Part shown: positions 7,260 through 27,740 of the stretch, one piece after another | Layout: each line of letters opens with the position of its first letter | Position numbering within the stretch: the first letter of the stretch is position 1 | Sequence record: PV173775 | Length of the DNA: 64,000 nucleotides | Direction: 5' to 3' (one strand) | DNA from: Escherichia phage GEP001 | Program-made: the position numbers and the translations under genes | The notes under the pieces: generated by a model | Seen by the model: only the letters and a program-made list of their open reading frames with translations | What the model was told of the DNA's origin: nothing | Databases searched by the model: none

Positions 7260-7596
7260 AGATGATTTAGATTTAGATCTAGAAATTATCGATGAATCCC
7301 CCTCTTCGGAGGGGGAAGAAGAAAGAAAAGAACGTCTTTTTAATGAATCTCTTAAGATAATTAAATCTGCCATGGAAAATGTTATCCAGGAGATTGTCAT
7401 TAAACTAGAAGATGGTTCTACACACATTGTGTATGTGACAAAATTAGATTGGGTTGATGGAAAAGTCGTAATGGACTTTGCTGTTCTTGATCAAGAAAGA
7501 AAAGCTGAGTTAGCTCCTCATGTAGAAAAATGTATTACAATGCAACTACAAGATGCATTTAATAAAAGGTCAAAGAAAAAATTTAAATTCTTTTAA
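7252..7596 (+). CDS. 40: gp40 head-vertex assembly chaperone
   Basis: 114 aa from internal Met (MNKDDLDLDL...), matching T4 gp40 length; lies between uvsX and 41. Confidence 0.65.
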   Translation: MNKDDLDLDLEIIDESPSSEGEEERKERLFNESLKIIKSAMENVIQEIVIKLEDGSTHIVYVTKLDWVDGKVVMDFAVLDQERKAELAPHVEKCITMQLQDAFNKRSKKKFKFF

Positions 7597-19521: not shown

Positions 19522-19833
19522 ATGTTTTATGTATATGCGATAGTGTATAGAGATAAAGATGGATTTGCGGTGCCTGTTCCTCTTGATGAACATCGTCCTG
19601 CTATATTTTTTGAAAGGGAGATTGCTGATAAAGTATTTACAACTCTTAAAGAGCAGTATCAACTAGCTTTAGGTATGGGAATTCCGAGATTAGTTGAGAC
19701 TCCACGCAAGTTTTGGTTTAATAAAATAGAAGTTAAACATGTTAAGCCTGATGTAGACACACAAAGATTATATCGGCGAATTTTAGATACTGGGCGTATT
19801 GTTAGTATACCAATTGCAGGGAATTTACGATGA
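19522..19833 (+). CDS. hypothetical protein (103 aa, dda.1-like)
   Basis: Track ORF immediately upstream of dda. Confidence 0.5.
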   Translation: MFYVYAIVYRDKDGFAVPVPLDEHRPAIFFEREIADKVFTTLKEQYQLALGMGIPRLVETPRKFWFNKIEVKHVKPDVDTQRLYRRILDTGRIVSIPIAGNLR

Positions 19834-21149
19834 CATTTGATGATTTGACAGAAGGCCAGAAAAATGCCTTTAACATCGTTATGAGGGCTATCAAAGAAAA
19901 GAAACATCATGTAACTATTAATGGACCTGCCGGTACTGGTAAAACTACTCTTACTAAGTTCATCATTGAAGCTTTAATATCTACAGGCGAAACTGGAATT
20001 ATTTTAGCAGCTCCTACACATGCAGCTAAAAAGATTCTTTCAAAACTATCAGGGAAAGAAGCAAGTACTATTCACAGTATTCTCAAAATTAACCCAGTAA
20101 CATACGAAGAAAACGTTCTTTTTGAACAAAAAGAAGTACCGGATTTGGCTAAATGCAGAGTATTAATCTGCGACGAAGTGTCAATGTATGATAGAAAGCT
20201 ATTTAAAATTCTGCTTTCAACTATCCCGCCGTGGTGTACTATAATTGGAATAGGCGATAATAAGCAAATTAGACCTGTTGACCCAGGAGAAAACACTGCT
20301 TATATCAGTCCATTCTTTACGCACAAAGATTTTTATCAGTGTGAACTCACTGAAGTTAAACGCAGTAATGCTCCTATTATTGATGTAGCTACTGATGTTC
20401 GTAATGGTAAGTGGATTTATGATAAAATTGTTGACGGGCATGGAGTACGTGGATTTACTGGTGATACCGCTTTACGCGATTTTATGGTAAATTATTTTTC
20501 AATCGTAAAATCACTAGATGATTTGTTTGAAAATCGTGTAATGGCATTTACGAATAAATCTGTTGATAAGTTAAATAGCATTATTCGTAAAAAGATTTTT
20601 GAAACTGATAAAGACTTTATTGTCGGTGAAATTATTGTAATGCAGGAACCATTAATTAAAACATATAAAATTGATGGAAAGCCTGTGTCAGAAATTATTT
20701 TTAATAACGGACAATTAGTTCGTATTATAGAAGCAGAGTATACATCAACATTTGTTAAAGCTCGTGGTGTTTCTGGAGAATATCTAATTCGTCATTGGGA
20801 TTTAACAGTAGAAACTTACGGCGATGATGAATATTATCGTGAAAAGATTAAAATAATTTCATCTGATGAAGAGCTGTATAAGTTTAACTTATTTTTAGGT
20901 AAAACGGCAGAAACTTACAAAAATTGGAATAAAGGTGGAAAAGCTCCGTGGAGTGATTTTTGGGATGCTAAATCACAGTTTAGTAAAGTGAAAGCACTTC
21001 CTGCATCAACATTCCATAAAGCTCAGGGCATGTCTGTAGATCGTGCTTTTATCTATACGCCTTGTATTCATTATGCAGATGCTGAACTAGCGCAGCAGCT
21101 TCTTTATGTTGGTGTCACTCGTGGTCGTTATGATGTGTTTTATGTATGA
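19830..21149 (+). CDS. dda: Dda DNA helicase (SF1B)
   Basis: 439 aa; Walker A GPAGTGKT; recognised as T4 Dda. Confidence 0.95.
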   Translation: MTFDDLTEGQKNAFNIVMRAIKEKKHHVTINGPAGTGKTTLTKFIIEALISTGETGIILAAPTHAAKKILSKLSGKEASTIHSILKINPVTYEENVLFEQKEVPDLAKCRVLICDEVSMYDRKLFKILLSTIPPWCTIIGIGDNKQIRPVDPGENTAYISPFFTHKDFYQCELTEVKRSNAPIIDVATDVRNGKWIYDKIVDGHGVRGFTGDTALRDFMVNYFSIVKSLDDLFENRVMAFTNKSVDKLNSIIRKKIFETDKDFIVGEIIVMQEPLIKTYKIDGKPVSEIIFNNGQLVRIIEAEYTSTFVKARGVSGEYLIRHWDLTVETYGDDEYYREKIKIISSDEELYKFNLFLGKTAETYKNWNKGGKAPWSDFWDAKSQFSKVKALPASTFHKAQGMSVDRAFIYTPCIHYADAELAQQLLYVGVTRGRYDVFYV

Positions 21150-21416: not shown

Positions 21417-21651
21417 ATTAAGTTTGCATCAGTTTAAATCTCTTATGACAAATGTTAAAGCTGTCATTCAAGAAAATTCAGGACCTGATAATGTTACTAT
21501 TCGCGAAAAAGCTTTAAAGATAGTATACAGTCTTGAAGAGATACAAAAAGATATTGAATCTATGGCAAAATTTATTGATGAGCCCATTAATAAAGTTTAT
21601 ATCCAAGATTATACTGTAGGTCAAATTCGCGATTTAGCGAGGAAAATTTAA
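21409..21651 (+). CDS. hypothetical protein (80 aa), paralog of the preceding ORF
   Basis: ATG at 21409 overlaps the preceding stop; similar L..EEI..D...I.DY..G.I..L pattern. Confidence 0.45.
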   Translation: MIELSLHQFKSLMTNVKAVIQENSGPDNVTIREKALKIVYSLEEIQKDIESMAKFIDEPINKVYIQDYTVGQIRDLARKI

Positions 21652-22334
21652 TGTTTGATTTTATTATAGATTTTGAAACAATGGGAAGCGGTGAAAAGGC
21701 AGCTGTTATTGATTTGGCTGTTATTGCCTTTGACCCTAATCCAGAAGTAGTTGAAACGTTTGATGAATTAGTTTCACGCGGCATTAAAATCAAATTTGAT
21801 TTAAAAAGCCAAAAAGGACATCGTCTTTTTACTAAAAGCACTATCGAATGGTGGAAAAATCAGTCTCCTGAAGCTCGAAAAAATATTGCACCGTCAGATG
21901 AAGATGTAAGCACTATCGATGGTATTGTAAAATTTAATGATTACATCAATGTACATAACATCGATCCTTGGAAATCTCAAGGCTGGTGCCGTGGAATGTC
22001 GTTTGATTTTCCAATTTTAGTCGATCTCATTCGTGATATTCAACGTCTTAATGGCGTTTCTGAGAATGAACTTGACACATTTAAGTTAGAACCATGTAAA
22101 TTCTGGAATCAGCGTGATATTCGTACCAGAATTGAAGCACTTCTCCTTGTTCGTGATATGACCACGTGTCCTCTTCCAAAGGGAACTTTAGATGGATTCG
22201 TTGCACATGATTCTATTCATGACTGTGCGAAAGACATCCTGATGATGAAGTATGCTTTGCGATATGCTATGGGTCTTGAAGATGCTCCGTCAGAGGAAGA
22301 ATGCGATCCTCTATCTCTTCCAACAAAACGATAA
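21651..22334 (+). CDS. dexA: DexA exonuclease A (DnaQ-like 3'-5' exonuclease)
   Basis: 227 aa; MFDFIIDFETMG DEDD-type motif; recognised as T4 DexA. Confidence 0.9.
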   Translation: MFDFIIDFETMGSGEKAAVIDLAVIAFDPNPEVVETFDELVSRGIKIKFDLKSQKGHRLFTKSTIEWWKNQSPEARKNIAPSDEDVSTIDGIVKFNDYINVHNIDPWKSQGWCRGMSFDFPILVDLIRDIQRLNGVSENELDTFKLEPCKFWNQRDIRTRIEALLLVRDMTTCPLPKGTLDGFVAHDSIHDCAKDILMMKYALRYAMGLEDAPSEEECDPLSLPTKR

Positions 22335-22340
22335 AAAGTT

Positions 22341-22370
22341 GTTTACTTCCTCGGTTAGTTGTGGTATTAT
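22341..22370 (+). promoter_or_regulatory. early promoter (GTTTAC, 18 bp, TATTAT)
   Basis: aaaaagttgtttacttcctcggttagttgtggtattat. Confidence 0.6.
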
Positions 22371-22397
22371 AACACCATAGCTACTGAGGATAATAAA

Positions 22398-22901
22398 ATG
22401 AAAATTTATCGTGTTGAATCATCTTTTAGTATTCTTAATTATGAAGATGCTATAACAATACGTCGAAATCTTTGTGTTCAAATAACACCGTACAGGAGTA
22501 TAATAGATTCATGGAGCGAAGAGTGGTTATTACACGTAGGTTATGACAGACCTAATTTTATGCATCATAGCGATAATAATAATAAAAGAATTCCTTTACC
22601 ACACGAAGATAAACTATTAGTTAAAAACGCTAATATAGTAATTAATACTAAGTTCAAGAAAGATTATGTTGGAGTAGAATATCATATTCCAGGATGGTTT
22701 ATAGCTCTTTATCATTTTGCTTTCGCTAGTGAATATGATATGATGAGATGGTTCACACGAGAAGAGCGGGAAGAATTATCTTCTAAAGGATTTTATCTCG
22801 CTGTGTATGAAGTTCCAGATGATCAAGTTATCATTGGCGGGCACCAAGTAATGTTCCGCAAATCGCATGCTGAACTCATAGATTTTATTGAAATGAGATA
22901 A
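22398..22901 (+). CDS. hypothetical protein (167 aa)
   Basis: ATG at 22398 downstream of the promoter; the track start at 22359 lies inside the promoter. Confidence 0.55.
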   Translation: MKIYRVESSFSILNYEDAITIRRNLCVQITPYRSIIDSWSEEWLLHVGYDRPNFMHHSDNNNKRIPLPHEDKLLVKNANIVINTKFKKDYVGVEYHIPGWFIALYHFAFASEYDMMRWFTREEREELSSKGFYLAVYEVPDDQVIIGGHQVMFRKSHAELIDFIEMR

Positions 22902-22903
22902 TT

Positions 22904-23446
22904 ATGAAATTTAATTATAATCCTGAATACATACCAAATCCGGTAGCTAAACTGATTGATTTTGATGTTGTAAGCACTTATGTATGCCCTGTTAAACCAC
23001 TGGAAATTAAGGAATCTACTATGACTACCGCTATTGAAATCGGCAAAACCTACAAACTAGTTGAACCTGAAATTAAAACCAATGCCTTGATTTCCGGCTA
23101 TAAAACTTTGACTGGTGTTTTTGGCGAAGGCGAATTTACTGTTGAAGACTTTGAAAAAAGTAAATGGTTTACTAAATCTTATATTGTCCACGGTCGTCGT
23201 TTAGACAATAACAAAATAGAGAAAATCCTGGTTTATGAAGCAGAGTTCATCCTGTTCCAAGAAGTTGAAGAACAAGACCCTACAGACCTTCTAACTCGTG
23301 CGGTAGCTATCAAGACCCCATTTGTTTCGGTCTGTGGTTGGGTAACAGACCAGTGGATTGAAGATGGTGTTGAACTTCTGAACGTTGTTCATGCAGGTGA
23401 TTTTAGCGTAGTACCTCGTAGTACGGTGGTAGCTATTTTGAATTAA
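22904..23446 (+). CDS. hypothetical protein (180 aa) sharing a C-terminal domain with MotB
   Basis: C-terminal CGWVTDQWIEDGVELLNVVHAGDFSVVPRS resembles the next ORF. Confidence 0.6.
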   Translation: MKFNYNPEYIPNPVAKLIDFDVVSTYVCPVKPLEIKESTMTTAIEIGKTYKLVEPEIKTNALISGYKTLTGVFGEGEFTVEDFEKSKWFTKSYIVHGRRLDNNKIEKILVYEAEFILFQEVEEQDPTDLLTRAVAIKTPFVSVCGWVTDQWIEDGVELLNVVHAGDFSVVPRSTVVAILN

Positions 23447-23448
23447 TA

Positions 23449-23484
23449 GTTTACAAACTCTTGGGACCAGAGTATAATGGTCCC
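23449..23484 (+). promoter_or_regulatory. early promoter with 7-bp perfect inverted repeat (gggacca / tggtccc) around TATAAT
   Basis: GTTTAC 23449-23454, TATAAT 23473-23478. Confidence 0.6.
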
Positions 23485-23522
23485 GCGGAGTATAAAATCT
23501 TTTTAACAAGTGAGAGATAACT

Positions 23523-24020
23523 ATGATTATTAATATTGGTGAAATTGCTCGTGTATCTGATAAATCTCGTTCTAAAGCAGCAGGAAAATTGGTCGAAATT
23601 GTAAGCATTCAGCTTAAACACGGCGTTAAAGATGAAGATTCTGAAGTAAAAGTGCGTATCATTCCTAAAGATGGAAAGTCTAAACCTCAGTTTGGCTATG
23701 TTCGTGCGAAATTTCTTGAATCTGCGTTTTTGAAAGCTGTTCCCGCTAAAGGAATTGAGACGATTGATACTTCACATGTAGGTGTAGACTTTAAGTGGAA
23801 ACTCGGTCAGGCTATTAAGTTCATTGCTCCTTATGAATTCGAATTTACCGAAGATGAGGAAGGGGTTGTTCAAAAACATCGTACTCGTGCTATGTGTGCA
23901 TACATTACCGATCAATGGGTAGAAGATGGCGTTAAGTTGTACAACGCGGTATTTTTAGGAACATACAAAGTCATTCCTGAAAGTTGGATTAAACACTATA
24001 GCAAAGCTCGCTGTGCATAA
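23523..24020 (+). CDS. motB: MotB-like protein
   Basis: 165 aa; position between dexA and cef/goF as in T4; identity is positional. Confidence 0.5.
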   Translation: MIINIGEIARVSDKSRSKAAGKLVEIVSIQLKHGVKDEDSEVKVRIIPKDGKSKPQFGYVRAKFLESAFLKAVPAKGIETIDTSHVGVDFKWKLGQAIKFIAPYEFEFTEDEEGVVQKHRTRAMCAYITDQWVEDGVKLYNAVFLGTYKVIPESWIKHYSKARCA

Positions 24021-24050
24021 AGTTTAAAATTTTTTCATAAAACTATATAC

Positions 24051-24093
24051 ATCAGTAGTTGATTATGGTACTATATCAATATCAACTACTGAT
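24051..24093 (+). promoter_or_regulatory. promoter-like element with 13-bp perfect inverted repeat (atcagtagttgat / atcaactactgat) and TACTAT in the loop
   Basis: Read directly from sequence; no GTTTAC -35. Confidence 0.45.
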
Positions 24094-24105
24094 ACAGAAA
24101 ACAAC

Positions 24106-24387
24106 TTGGAGAATAAAATGGAAAACTTAATTATCATCGAACAATCTTTCAACGATTATGGTATGGCTTATGGTTATCGTGCGATAATGGAAGATTCTCG
24201 TGGATGTGTTATCGATATTGCTGAATGTAAAGATTTACTGCAGCTTTTGAAGATTGTTCGCAAAAATTGGGATTGTGAAAACATTAAAGTTCGTGTTGTA
24301 ACGGAAGAAGAAACTGTTTTTCATGATGTAAAATTTGCCAAAGGTGCTGCTACTCTTCTGAAACGCATCGCTCCACTGTTCAATTAA
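24106..24387 (+). CDS. hypothetical protein (93 aa)
   Basis: Track ORF. Confidence 0.5.
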   Translation: MENKMENLIIIEQSFNDYGMAYGYRAIMEDSRGCVIDIAECKDLLQLLKIVRKNWDCENIKVRVVTEEETVFHDVKFAKGAATLLKRIAPLFN

Positions 24388-24400
24388 TGAGGAAATTGTA

Positions 24401-24616
24401 ATGAAACGTAAAATTGTTCAGAACTGCACTAATGACGAATTTGAAGATGTATTATTTGATCCAGATTTGGTAGTGGTTCAAAAGGAACATACCGTTAAGT
24501 TTACTCACTTGACTTCGGTTTATGTGTATGAAAAGGTTGGTGATAAACAGCCGATTTACGGTGTATTCCGTGAAATTACTGAAGATGGCACAACTTACTG
24601 GAAGGAAATTTATTAA
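24401..24616 (+). CDS. hypothetical protein (71 aa; Cef-like by size and position)
   Basis: Same length as T4 Cef; sequence not recognised. Confidence 0.35.
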
Positions 24617-25035
24617 TGGCTATTAAATTTGAAGTTAATAAATGGTATCAATTTAAAAATAAACAAGCTCAAGAAAATTTTATTAAAGACCATACTGATA
24701 ACGGAATCTATGCACGACGTTTAGGTATGGAACCTTTTAAAATTTTAGATGTTGACTATTACGGGCGTCCTACTAAAATTGTGACATCTACTGGCACAAT
24801 TGGATATTCAACATGTGGTACAGTCATTGACGAAAACTTTATCTGGCTCTCTACTAACGAAGCTGAGTTCTTTGATGAAGTTGAAAATCCATACCAGGCT
24901 GCTGAAGAACAAGAGCAGGAAGAGCAAGAACAAATAGAAGATTTCACAGAATTCCCGGTAATGAAAGTTACTATTGAAAATAATGAACAGGCATGGTCTT
25001 TGTATCAGATGTTGAAAGCACATTTTAAGGAATAA
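24616..25035 (+). CDS. hypothetical protein (139 aa; GoF-like by position; acidic [10 protein letters not shown] tract)
   Basis: Track ORF. Confidence 0.35.
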
Positions 25036-25216: not shown

Positions 25217-25588
25217 ATGTTTAAAATTGGTAAGAAATATCGTGTTCGCGAAGGTGAAGAAAAGAAATATCTACTTTCTTCTATTTATAGGAATGGTTCT
25301 ATTAATGCCGTAATATCTACAAGCGAATTTATCGTTGAAGATATGAAAGGCCATAATGTTACAATGATTAGTACAGCATCTGGAAATGATGGAAAAATTC
25401 TTCACAGTTTTCAGAGTAATGTTCTAATTTATGATGAAGAATTTGACTTCTTCGAAGAAGTTCCTGAAGATTTTGATTTTGAATGCACCATCACTATGAA
25501 ATCTGGTGACCCTCTTTCATTTACGGTTAAAGATGAAAGAAGTCGCTTGAGAATTATTAGTCTCCTTCAAGCCATTAAATTTGAGTGA
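25217..25588 (+). CDS. hypothetical protein (123 aa)
   Basis: Track ORF. Confidence 0.5.
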   Translation: MFKIGKKYRVREGEEKKYLLSSIYRNGSINAVISTSEFIVEDMKGHNVTMISTASGNDGKILHSFQSNVLIYDEEFDFFEEVPEDFDFECTITMKSGDPLSFTVKDERSRLRIISLLQAIKFE

Positions 25589-25870: not shown

Positions 25871-25922
25871 AGCTTTATGATTACCGGAGTATAATATTCC
25901 CGAAACCAAACGAGGATAAGTG

Positions 25923-27740
25923 ATGATTAAGAATGAAATTAAAATTCTGAGCGATATTGAACATATCAAAAAGCGTAGCGGCATGTACATTGGTTCTTCT
26001 GCTAATGAAATGCATGAGCGCTTTCTGTTTGGTAAATGGGAAAGTGTTCAGTATGTACCTGGTCTTGTTAAGCTTATTGATGAAATTATCGATAACTCAG
26101 TAGATGAAGGTATTCGTACTAAGTTTAAATTCGCAAATAAAATTAATGTTACCATTAAAAATAATCAGGTAACAGTTGAAGATAACGGTCGTGGTATTCC
26201 ACAAGCGATGGTTAAAACACCTACCGGTGAAGAAATTCCTGGTCCTGTTGCTGCCTGGACTATTCCAAAAGCAGGTGGTAACTTTGGTGATGATAAAGAA
26301 CGCGTCACCGGTGGTATGAATGGTGTTGGTTCTAGTTTAACTAACATTTTTTCTGTGATGTTTGTCGGTGAAACTGGCGATGGTCAAAATAATATTGTTG
26401 TTCGTTGTTCAAATGGCATGGAAAATAAATCATGGGAAACTATTCCTGGAAAATGGAAAGGAACTCGCGTTACTTTCATTCCTGATTTTATGTCATTTGA
26501 AACTAATGAGCTATCTCAAGTTTATCTTGACATTACGTTAGATCGTCTCCAGACACTTGCAGTAGTTTATCCTGATATTCAATTTACCTTTAATGGTAAA
26601 AAGGTTCAGGGTAATTTTAAGAAATATGCACGCCAATATGATGAACACGCCATCGTTCAAGAACAAGAAAACTGTTCTATTGCGGTTGGTCGTTCACCGG
26701 ACGGTTTTCGTCAATTAACGTACGTCAATAACATTCATACTAAGAATGGTGGCCATCACATTGACTGCGTTATGGATGATATTTGTGAAGACCTTATTCC
26801 ACAAATCAAACGTAAGTTCAAAATTGATGTAACTAAAGCACGTGTTAAAGAATGTTTGACTATCGTTATGTTTGTTCGTGATATGAAAAACACGCGATTT
26901 GACTCTCAAACTAAAGAGCGTCTGACTTCTCCATTTGGTGAAATCCGTAGTCATATTCAGCTTGATGCTAAAAAGATTTCACGTGCTATTTTAAATAATG
27001 AAGCAATTTTAATGCCAATTATTGAAGCTGCCTTGGCTCGTAAATTGGCGGCAGAAAAAGCAGCAGAAACTAAAGCAGCTAAAAAGGCTTCTAAAGCTAA
27101 GGTTCATAAACATATTAAAGCGAATCTTTGTGGTAAAGATGCTGACACTACTCTTTTCTTGACTGAGGGTGATTCTGCTATCGGATATCTTATTGATGTT
27201 CGTGATAAAGAACTTCATGGCGGTTATCCATTGCGTGGTAAAGTTCTCAACAGTTGGGGTATGTCATATGCTGATATGCTTAAAAACAAAGAACTGTTTG
27301 ATATTTGCGCAATCACTGGATTAGTTCTTGGTGAAAAAGCCGAAAACTTGAATTATCATAATATTGCTATTATGACCGATGCTGACCATGATGGTCTAGG
27401 AAGCATTTATCCTTCTTTGCTCGGATTTTTTAGTAATTGGCCAGAACTGTTTGAACAAGGAAGAATTCGCTTTGTCAAAACTCCTGTAATCATCGCTCAG
27501 GTCGGTAAAAAACAAGAATGGTTTTATACAGTCGCTGAATATGAGAGTGCTAAAGATGCTCTACCTAAACATAGCATCCGTTATATTAAGGGACTTGGCT
27601 CTTTGGAAAAATCTGAATATCGTGAGATGATTCAAAATCCAGTATATGATGTTGTTAAACTTCCTGAGAATTGGAAAGAGCTTTTTGAAATGCTCATGGG
27701 AGATAATGCTGACCTTCGTAAAGAATGGATGAGCCAGTAG
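25923..27740 (+). CDS. 39: DNA topoisomerase II large subunit gp39 (ATPase, GyrB-like), 39 and 60 in one ORF
   Basis: 605 aa; GHKL ATPase and TOPRIM motifs; single ORF with no split or bypass element, as in T2/T6. Confidence 0.9.
   Translation: MIKNEIKILSDIEHIKKRSGMYIGSSANEMHERFLFGKWESVQYVPGLVKLIDEIIDNSVDEGIRTKFKFANKINVTIKNNQVTVEDNGRGIPQAMVKTPTGEEIPGPVAAWTIPKAGGNFGDDKERVTGGMNGVGSSLTNIFSVMFVGETGDGQNNIVVRCSNGMENKSWETIPGKWKGTRVTFIPDFMSFETNELSQVYLDITLDRLQTLAVVYPDIQFTFNGKKVQGNFKKYARQYDEHAIVQEQENCSIAVGRSPDGFRQLTYVNNIHTKNGGHHIDCVMDDICEDLIPQIKRKFKIDVTKARVKECLTIVMFVRDMKNTRFDSQTKERLTSPFGEIRSHIQLDAKKISRAILNNEAILMPIIEAALARKLAAEKAAETKAAKKASKAKVHKHIKANLCGKDADTTLFLTEGDSAIGYLIDVRDKELHGGYPLRGKVLNSWGMSYADMLKNKELFDICAITGLVLGEKAENLNYHNIAIMTDADHDGLGSIYPSLLGFFSNWPELFEQGRIRFVKTPVIIAQVGKKQEWFYTVAEYESAKDALPKHSIRYIKGLGSLEKSEYREMIQNPVYDVVKLPENWKELFEMLMGDNADLRKEWMSQ

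Follow-up and report, generated by a model that had tools for sequence, protein, structure and literature searches.

MotB.1 and MotB of Escherichia phage GEP001 share a homologous C-terminal domain carried behind different N-terminal modules

Two neighbouring genes and their common C-terminal domain

Positions 22904 to 24020 of a 64,000-nucleotide (nt) stretch of Escherichia phage GEP001 (record PV173775; the whole stretch is called the window here) lie in the dda–39 region, early and dispensable, of a T4-like phage (Tequatrovirus) and hold two plus-strand open reading frames (ORFs), one of 180 amino acids (aa; 22904-23446, ORF180 in the following) and one of 165 aa (23523-24020). Both had been placed at these coordinates by an original prediction, made from the letters alone, which held that they share a C-terminal segment, and our analysis leaves next to no doubt that they are MotB.1 and MotB with a homologous C-terminal domain. 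ORF180 is the motB.1 homologue by synteny and by its full-length match to PHROG 2333 (2.3e-83), and its more than 200 homologues all carry PF17613. The 165-aa ORF, previously described as MotB-like, is motB by synteny and by Pfam PF17613, which it matches with 330 bits (cut-off 25; 2.8e-99), its residues 1-163 covering positions 1-160 out of 162 in the profile; it also matches phrog_1671 (2.8e-76), is 88-98% identical with MotB proteins of Tequatrovirus and lies between motB.1 and cef in the dda-39 region, as in T4 and in phage vb_GEC_SH_GT.

The peptides on which the prediction was based are residues 144-171 of ORF180 (DNA 23333-23416) and 125-152 of MotB (DNA 23895-23978), identical at 15 of 28 positions. 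BLASTP aligns the two proteins with 16/32 identities (E = 5e-11), and their Smith-Waterman score is 108, a value that none of 20,000 shuffles of either one attained (30.6 +/- 5.2; z about 15, Gumbel P about 2e-9), so that an alignment no better than shuffled controls, which had been named as grounds for giving up the idea, is not what we find. When the two families were turned into separately built profiles, hhalign joined residues 128-178 of ORF180 and 93-159 of MotB over 51 columns at 98.6% probability (E = 8e-16). Pfam PF17613 (motB) recognises residues 142-175 of ORF180 as well (34.2 bits, above the gathering cut-off of 25), the PHROG families of MotB.1 and MotB cross-match, and a hidden Markov model (HMM) of the domain scores 85 bits in MotB.1 and 119 bits in MotB. 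A six-frame search of the window with the domain profile gave no third copy (next best E 0.49).

For T4, a common conserved C-terminal domain of MotB and MotB.1 behind different N-terminal domains was described by Patterson-West et al. (2021, Viruses 13:84; PMC7827196), who also noted that motB.1 lies immediately upstream of motB, that both genes occur in many phages and that one may be a duplicate of the other, and who assigned an OB-fold to the C-terminal domain of MotB. Since domain sharing and duplication were published there, the finding as such is already known, and the shared domain, real as it is, is encoded in Pfam PF17613 too. The literature that we found on MotB.1 consists of this study and one other (Kim et al. 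2025; PMC12152347), which reports an LSm-like fold for the N-terminal domains of T4 MotB.1, GoF and Frd.2 in Tevenvirinae and from whose discussion the domain shared with MotB is absent. What is new here is a predicted SH3-like rather than OB fold, the acidic nature of the shared core, a covarying hairpin that overlaps the promoter-like site ahead of motB, and an extra G in the motB.1 gene of the T4 reference.

Extent, predicted fold and distribution of the shared domain

Although the shared segment is present, 28 residues proved too short for it and the real unit is about twice that. Judged by hhalign, structural models and HMM, it spans residues 125-178 of MotB.1 (23276-23437, plus strand; ~55 aa, starting with DPTDLL) and residues 88-160 of MotB (23784-24002, plus strand; ~72 aa, with FKWKL at ~90). 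MotB has a beta-hairpin insert of ~17 residues (about residues 103-122) at the boundary between first strand and conserved core, which MotB.1 lacks. AlphaFold2 models from two independent alignments (41 MotB.1-type and 50 MotB-type sequences) give both C-terminal domains the same five-strand pattern with a short 3-10 turn preceding the last strand: strands 133-137, 142-153, 156-163, 166-171 and 175-177 in MotB.1, with a predicted local distance difference test (pLDDT) of 76-82, and strands 97-112, 115-134, 137-144, 147-152 and 156-159 in MotB, with a pLDDT of 83-94 and a predicted template-modelling score (pTM) of 0.72. Pairwise alignment and structure prediction, the two checks originally suggested, thus yield a significant match and matching predicted five-strand barrels.

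On these models the shared domain looks like a five-stranded small beta-barrel of SH3/Tudor/KOW-like type. The OB-fold or cold-shock assignment published for the C-terminal domain of MotB was considered and rejected, as the models do not support an OB topology with structural neighbours among OB, cold-shock domain (CSD) or eIF5A domains. The likeness to SH3-like small barrels (Tudor, chromo, PWWP and the KOW domains of Spt5/NusG) is one of fold only, with identities of 8-23%, and no profile-level relationship to them was detected. The conserved aromatics W/Y146, W151, H/F163 and F/Y167 may simply be core-forming.

In the alignments, ORF180 carries the MotB.1-type C-terminal signature DPTDLL...GWVTDQWIEDGVELLNVVHAG..SVVPRS, and D, W, E, L, N and V are invariant in both paralogues, with Q and G nearly so and no basic residue among them. 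The shared core carries a net charge of -2 to -4 in either family, the N-terminal domain of MotB one of +5, and with the acidic part shared and the basic head unshared, it is unlikely that the shared domain provides a surface for binding DNA. Hence, of the earlier interpretation, a duplicated DNA-binding or effector domain on two different N-terminal modules, we retain the duplication and the different modules and disfavour the DNA-binding role. Likewise, we discarded the idea that the cysteine at the start of the 28-residue motif has a role, as this column is variable (C, G, N, S or A). At two positions of the domain the families carry opposite charges, E157/R172 in MotB.1 (23372-23374, 23417-23419) versus K138/E153 in MotB (23934-23936, 23979-23981). 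These residues (GVELL...PRS versus GVKLY...PES) are nearly invariant within each family, the coupling being lost in more distant members, and their reversal could reflect a swapped salt bridge or a specificity switch.

Searches by tblastn located the domain at 1748 places in 843 phage records, usually two and sometimes three per genome, all of them from T4-like phages and almost all of these from phages of enterobacteria. When 1.84 billion cluster representatives were searched exhaustively with the profile, only 35 proteins came up; 29 are small (43-251 aa, several truncated or frameshifted) and have the domain at the C-terminus in every intact case. Across the data searched, the domain is limited to small early proteins (about 100-250 aa) of enterobacterial T4-like phages and is always C-terminal. 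There, it follows at least three kinds of N-terminal module, namely KOW-like, LSm/SH3-like (single or tandem) and an extra N-terminal domain: relatives include tandem-barrel forms, forms of 245-251 aa with the extra domain, and hybrids (P0288, P0289) that combine a MotB-like KOW head with a MotB.1-type tail, and in a Klebsiella phage there is a lone KOW-plus-tail gene, with cef directly after it. The similarity of MotB and MotB.1 is one of old paralogy plus domain shuffling.

We did not accept the long profile matches (361-862 aa) as homologues: the three that we read are tail-fibre proteins with repeated SGYATEQWVEDKGYL and another is rich in Ig domains, and all are treated as short-motif resemblances. 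In tail-fibre proteins P0301, P0304 and P0306 (601-862 aa), a repeat, SLSGYATEQWVEDKGYLTEHQSL, is like the MotB core AYITDQWVEDGVKLYN and produces profile E-values of 1e-4 to 1e-6 and, in P0304, a Pfam motB match of 29 bits; this likeness is probably convergent hairpin sequence. A separate curiosity from the search of representatives is P0300 (43 aa), a natural fusion, MKIYRVESSFSILDYEDGVELLNVVHAGDFSVVPRSAVVAILN, of the start of MotB.2 with the end of the MotB.1 domain, which implies that the greater part of motB.2 and motB.1 was lost by deletion at a YED/EDG microhomology.

Unshared N-terminal halves, the intergenic spacer and the neighbouring genes

In front of the shared domain, ORF180 has a predicted LSm/SH3-like barrel (23033-23266, plus strand; residues 44-121) that is missing from MotB. 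Its AlphaFold2 model contains strands 49-52, 77-85, 92-99, 105-111 and 118-120 and a helix at 60-73 (pLDDT 77-89). Residues 45-123 match a 123-aa ORF of the Frd.2/GoF-type family further downstream (25217-25588, plus strand) with 29/86 identities (34%; BLASTP E 2e-6), and phrog_622 matches ORF180 at 2.6e-5 and this second ORF, which has a faint Pfam FRD2 match too, at 2.7e-29. It is through phrog_622 and the 123-aa ORF that ORF180 is tied to the GoF/Frd.2 family; BLASTP of ORF180 with the goF-like ORF at 24616-25035 was not significant (E 0.31). With its front related to the 123-aa ORF and its back to MotB, ORF180 therefore is a two-way mosaic.

The barrel is preceded by an N-terminal extension (22904-23026, plus strand; residues 1-41) predicted to be disordered (pLDDT <50), and the alternative start M40 used by some annotators leads to 141-aa forms. 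Residues 17-39 (LIDFDVVSTYVCPVKPLEIKEST) are the linker that joins the extra N-terminal domain in the 245-251-aa relatives; the same linker is present in long forms (P0083, P0085, P0098), and the linker motif in 127 of 284 family proteins. Linkers of the type IDFDVVSTYVCPVKPLE (D-x-D-h-x-S-M-Y-x-x-P-h-K-P) were seen in the window at 22952-23017 (residues 17-38 of ORF180) and in P0260, P0268, P0269, P0288 and P0290. They occupy various sites, ahead of the LSm-like barrel, between barrel and tail or behind a KOW head, resemble the DPTDLLxxAVxIxxPF segment that opens the shared domain, and may mark recombination joints or an extra strand.

When compared with T4 by blastn, the window aligns at 21601-22889 (94.2%) and 23334-24125 (92.6%) with nothing aligned between, and the right junction is exactly the codon that opens the 28-residue motif at the start of the conserved core. 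As DNA similarity to T4 is absent from 22890-23333 (plus strand), which covers the N-terminal two thirds of MotB.1 including the linker, and the flanks are backbone of 92-94% identity, the front of motB.1 is an exchanged cassette. At the protein level the N-terminal part of ORF180 shares few identities with T4 MotB.1 in the alignment; Foldseek nonetheless pairs ORF180 with T4 P39415 over 118 columns (34% identity, E 1.6e-7), both being predicted small barrels. Among relatives, the motB.1 slot, bounded by motB.2 on its 5' and motB on its 3' side, is filled by variants of 143, 164-169, 180 or 245-251 aa, and the genes on either side are unchanged in a phage that carries a 249-aa variant. The slot behaves as an exchangeable cassette with its right junction at the start of the conserved core and clearly illustrates how N-terminal cassettes are exchanged at a defined junction.

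MotB, for its part, starts with a KOW/SH3-like barrel (23523-23726, plus strand; residues 1-68, the +5 domain above) that MotB.1 does not have. T4 MotB binds DNA tightly and non-specifically, is toxic to E. coli and copurifies with H-NS/StpA (PMC6070864, PMC7827196), properties that the MotB of the window would be expected to share, given about 88% identity with T4. In these two publications on MotB, there is no truncation experiment that places DNA binding in either domain.

The 76-nt spacer between both genes was originally said to contain a palindromic promoter, and we do find a promoter-like site for motB of sigma-70/T4-early type (TTTACA, 17 nt, TATAAT; 23450-23478, plus strand), a consensus match at 11 of 12 positions and the best in the region, together with an imperfect 13-bp inverted repeat (23457-23491, plus strand) whose loop contains the -10 hexamer. 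The RNA of 23440-23525 has a predicted folding energy of -26 kcal/mol (z = -4.6), which 0/200 shuffles equal. The predicted -35 and -10 are kept in relatives from Tequatrovirus, Dhakavirus and Gaprivervirus, and in Dhakavirus and some Tequatrovirus (L004, L006, L007) an alternative stem, GAGAGCC/GGCTCTC, takes the place of GGGACC/GGTCCC with the promoter hexamers kept. The stem variants covary, and pairing maintained through three double changes indicates that the palindrome is selected. It is not universal, since the spacer of Mosigvirus vB_Eco_mar005P1 (L013, 438-507) has no such hairpin and a weaker promoter match. As the 5' arm would be missing from a transcript that starts at the spacer promoter, the hairpin could form only in RNA reading through from motB.1 or as a DNA structure. 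Nor is it a canonical terminator, as a scan for intrinsic terminators found none, and no Rfam family matched within 22300-24500 with E up to 1.

As to the wider region, the 2.1 kb surrounding both ORFs are 95-98% identical with many Tequatrovirus genomes, and gene order agrees with T4 and with the 98%-identical phage vb_GEC_SH_GT, in which the homologues of both ORFs are annotated as 'MotB-like transcriptional regulator'. Upstream lie dda (19830-21149) followed by two small ORFs, dexA (21651-22334) and motB.2, the 5' neighbour of ORF180, which ends at 22901. Downstream, motB is followed by a 93-aa ORF (24106-24387; phrog_3720, function not assigned), cef (24401-24616), the goF-like ORF with 39.2 next to it, the 123-aa ORF and gene 39 (25920-27740). 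The 93-aa ORF before cef is extra relative to T4, whose spacer there is only ~170 nt; just 5' of it is a 20-nt inverted repeat (24051-24093, 85% complementary) that T4 has too. Gene 39, for the large subunit of topoisomerase II, is a single undivided ORF of 606 aa, whereas T4 divides it between gp39 (516 aa) and gp60, which mobA separates.

Possible roles of heads and tail, and comparison with T4

Taken as a whole, our data seem best explained by homology and domain shuffling of two proteins whose heads bind nucleic acid and whose tail contacts protein, an overall reading whose chances we rate as even. According to this proposal, the variable N-terminal barrels would act as nucleic-acid-binding heads, of which the basic KOW-like one in MotB would take DNA and the LSm-like one in MotB.1 perhaps RNA. 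Contacts with proteins would fall to the conserved acidic C-terminal barrel, a common module that serves in self- or hetero-association or in docking on one shared host partner, for which the H-NS/StpA-DNA complexes that MotB copurifies with are possible candidates, and motB would be transcribed from its own early promoter in the spacer, overlapped by the conserved hairpin. The protein-contact role of the shared domain is, on its own, a tentative suggestion and somewhat more apt to fail than to hold.

In a more daring version, the acidic SH3-like tail would be a docking or hetero-association module by which interchangeable heads, whether DNA-binding (KOW), RNA-binding (LSm-like) or tandem barrels, all reach a single host target, for example filaments of H-NS/StpA nucleoprotein, and the conserved stretch that holds the C-terminal core, promoter-hairpin and motB would serve as the anchor for the recombination that swaps these heads. 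We regard this elaboration as unlikely; if it were true, T4 MotB.1 would so far have been studied as a truncated protein without its docking module (see below).

Alternatively, the shared domain itself may be a nucleic-acid-binding module, OB-fold or cold-shock-like, whose duplication would have given two proteins the same means of binding DNA or RNA. This would agree with the published OB-fold assignment, yet the complete SH3/Tudor-like barrel of our models, with its acidic conserved face, shifts likely DNA binding to the KOW-like head of MotB and suggests a tail for protein contacts, which to our minds renders this alternative rather improbable, though it fares best among the rivals. Distinctly unlikely, too, is that the shared segment is a passive scaffold for folding or stability with all function in the N-terminal modules. 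While the segment has no assigned activity and deletion of T4 motB.1 is without phenotype (PMC12152347), it is the most conserved part of MotB.1, with about 80-90% identity between window-type and T4-type despite N-terminal domains without detectable DNA similarity, and polar or charged residues of surface type (D, E, D and N, with Q nearly so) are invariant in both paralogues, a pattern that a mere scaffold would not usually show.

Recent gene conversion or recombination between neighbours, with no old shared domain behind it, is a far weaker option. It could invoke that motB.1 and motB are adjacent, that a 27-nt stretch has 78% DNA identity between them and that the region is recombinogenic, as the cassette swap and the motB.2::motB.1 deletion fusion in P0300 testify. 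However, protein identity in the core is only about 50% and the DNA similarity ends beyond these 27 nt, which leads us to reject a recent event; moreover, the tail types (GVELLNVVH...PRS versus GVKLYN.VF...PES) are distinct lineages conserved across several phage genera, and MotB has a 17-aa insert where MotB.1 has none. We therefore consider conversion very improbable. Chance similarity of two short beta-hairpin peptides, which could cite the shortness of the motif and the recurrence of the similar SGYATEQWVEDKGYL in unrelated phage tail-fibre repeats, is practically negligible in view of the shuffles, the hhalign result, the Pfam match above its gathering cut-off and a predicted domain architecture that is alike in both proteins.

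Returning to shared homology and shuffled heads, the T4 reference itself (NC_000866.4) has a MotB.1 annotated with 119 aa (13.8 kDa). In comparison with a re-sequenced T4 clone (OL964735.1), to which it is otherwise identical here, the reference contains one extra G (ATGGATTGGAAGATGG versus ATGGATTGAAGATGG), which at about 7291-7310 of NC_000866.4 is also extra relative to the window (23358-23372). The reading frame thus changes midway through the shared domain, where the reference MotB.1 is cut short, with the rest of the domain, EDGVELLNVVHAGEYSVVPRSAVVAILN, intact in another frame. The corrected 143-aa MotB.1 is found verbatim on 256 contigs and the 119-aa form on 2. Since MotB.1 is given as 13.8 kDa in PMC12152347 and T4 sequences are cited there from NC_000866.4, the plasmid-borne MotB.1 of that study may have been without most of the shared domain. 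The same may apply to any construct based on the 119-aa annotation, the full-length 143-aa protein being the common form in databases, and such by-products of our analysis are possibly useful for research on host takeover by T4.

With regard to known systems, the LSm-like family to which GoF belongs together with MotB.1 and Frd.2 (PMC12152347) resembles ORF180 in its small bent N-terminal beta-barrel and in the phrog_622/Frd.2-like sequence relation. GoF and Frd.2, in contrast, have no MotB-type C-terminal domain, so that this family concerns the unshared N-terminal half only. The closest parallel is the MotB/MotB.1 pair of T4, with the same genes in the same order and a shared tail behind different heads, the MotB proteins of window and T4 type being about 88% identical. 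The C-terminal core of T4 MotB.1 is about 80-90% identical to that of the window, whereas the N-terminal part in the window is another cassette, extended by 41 residues that are predicted to be disordered.
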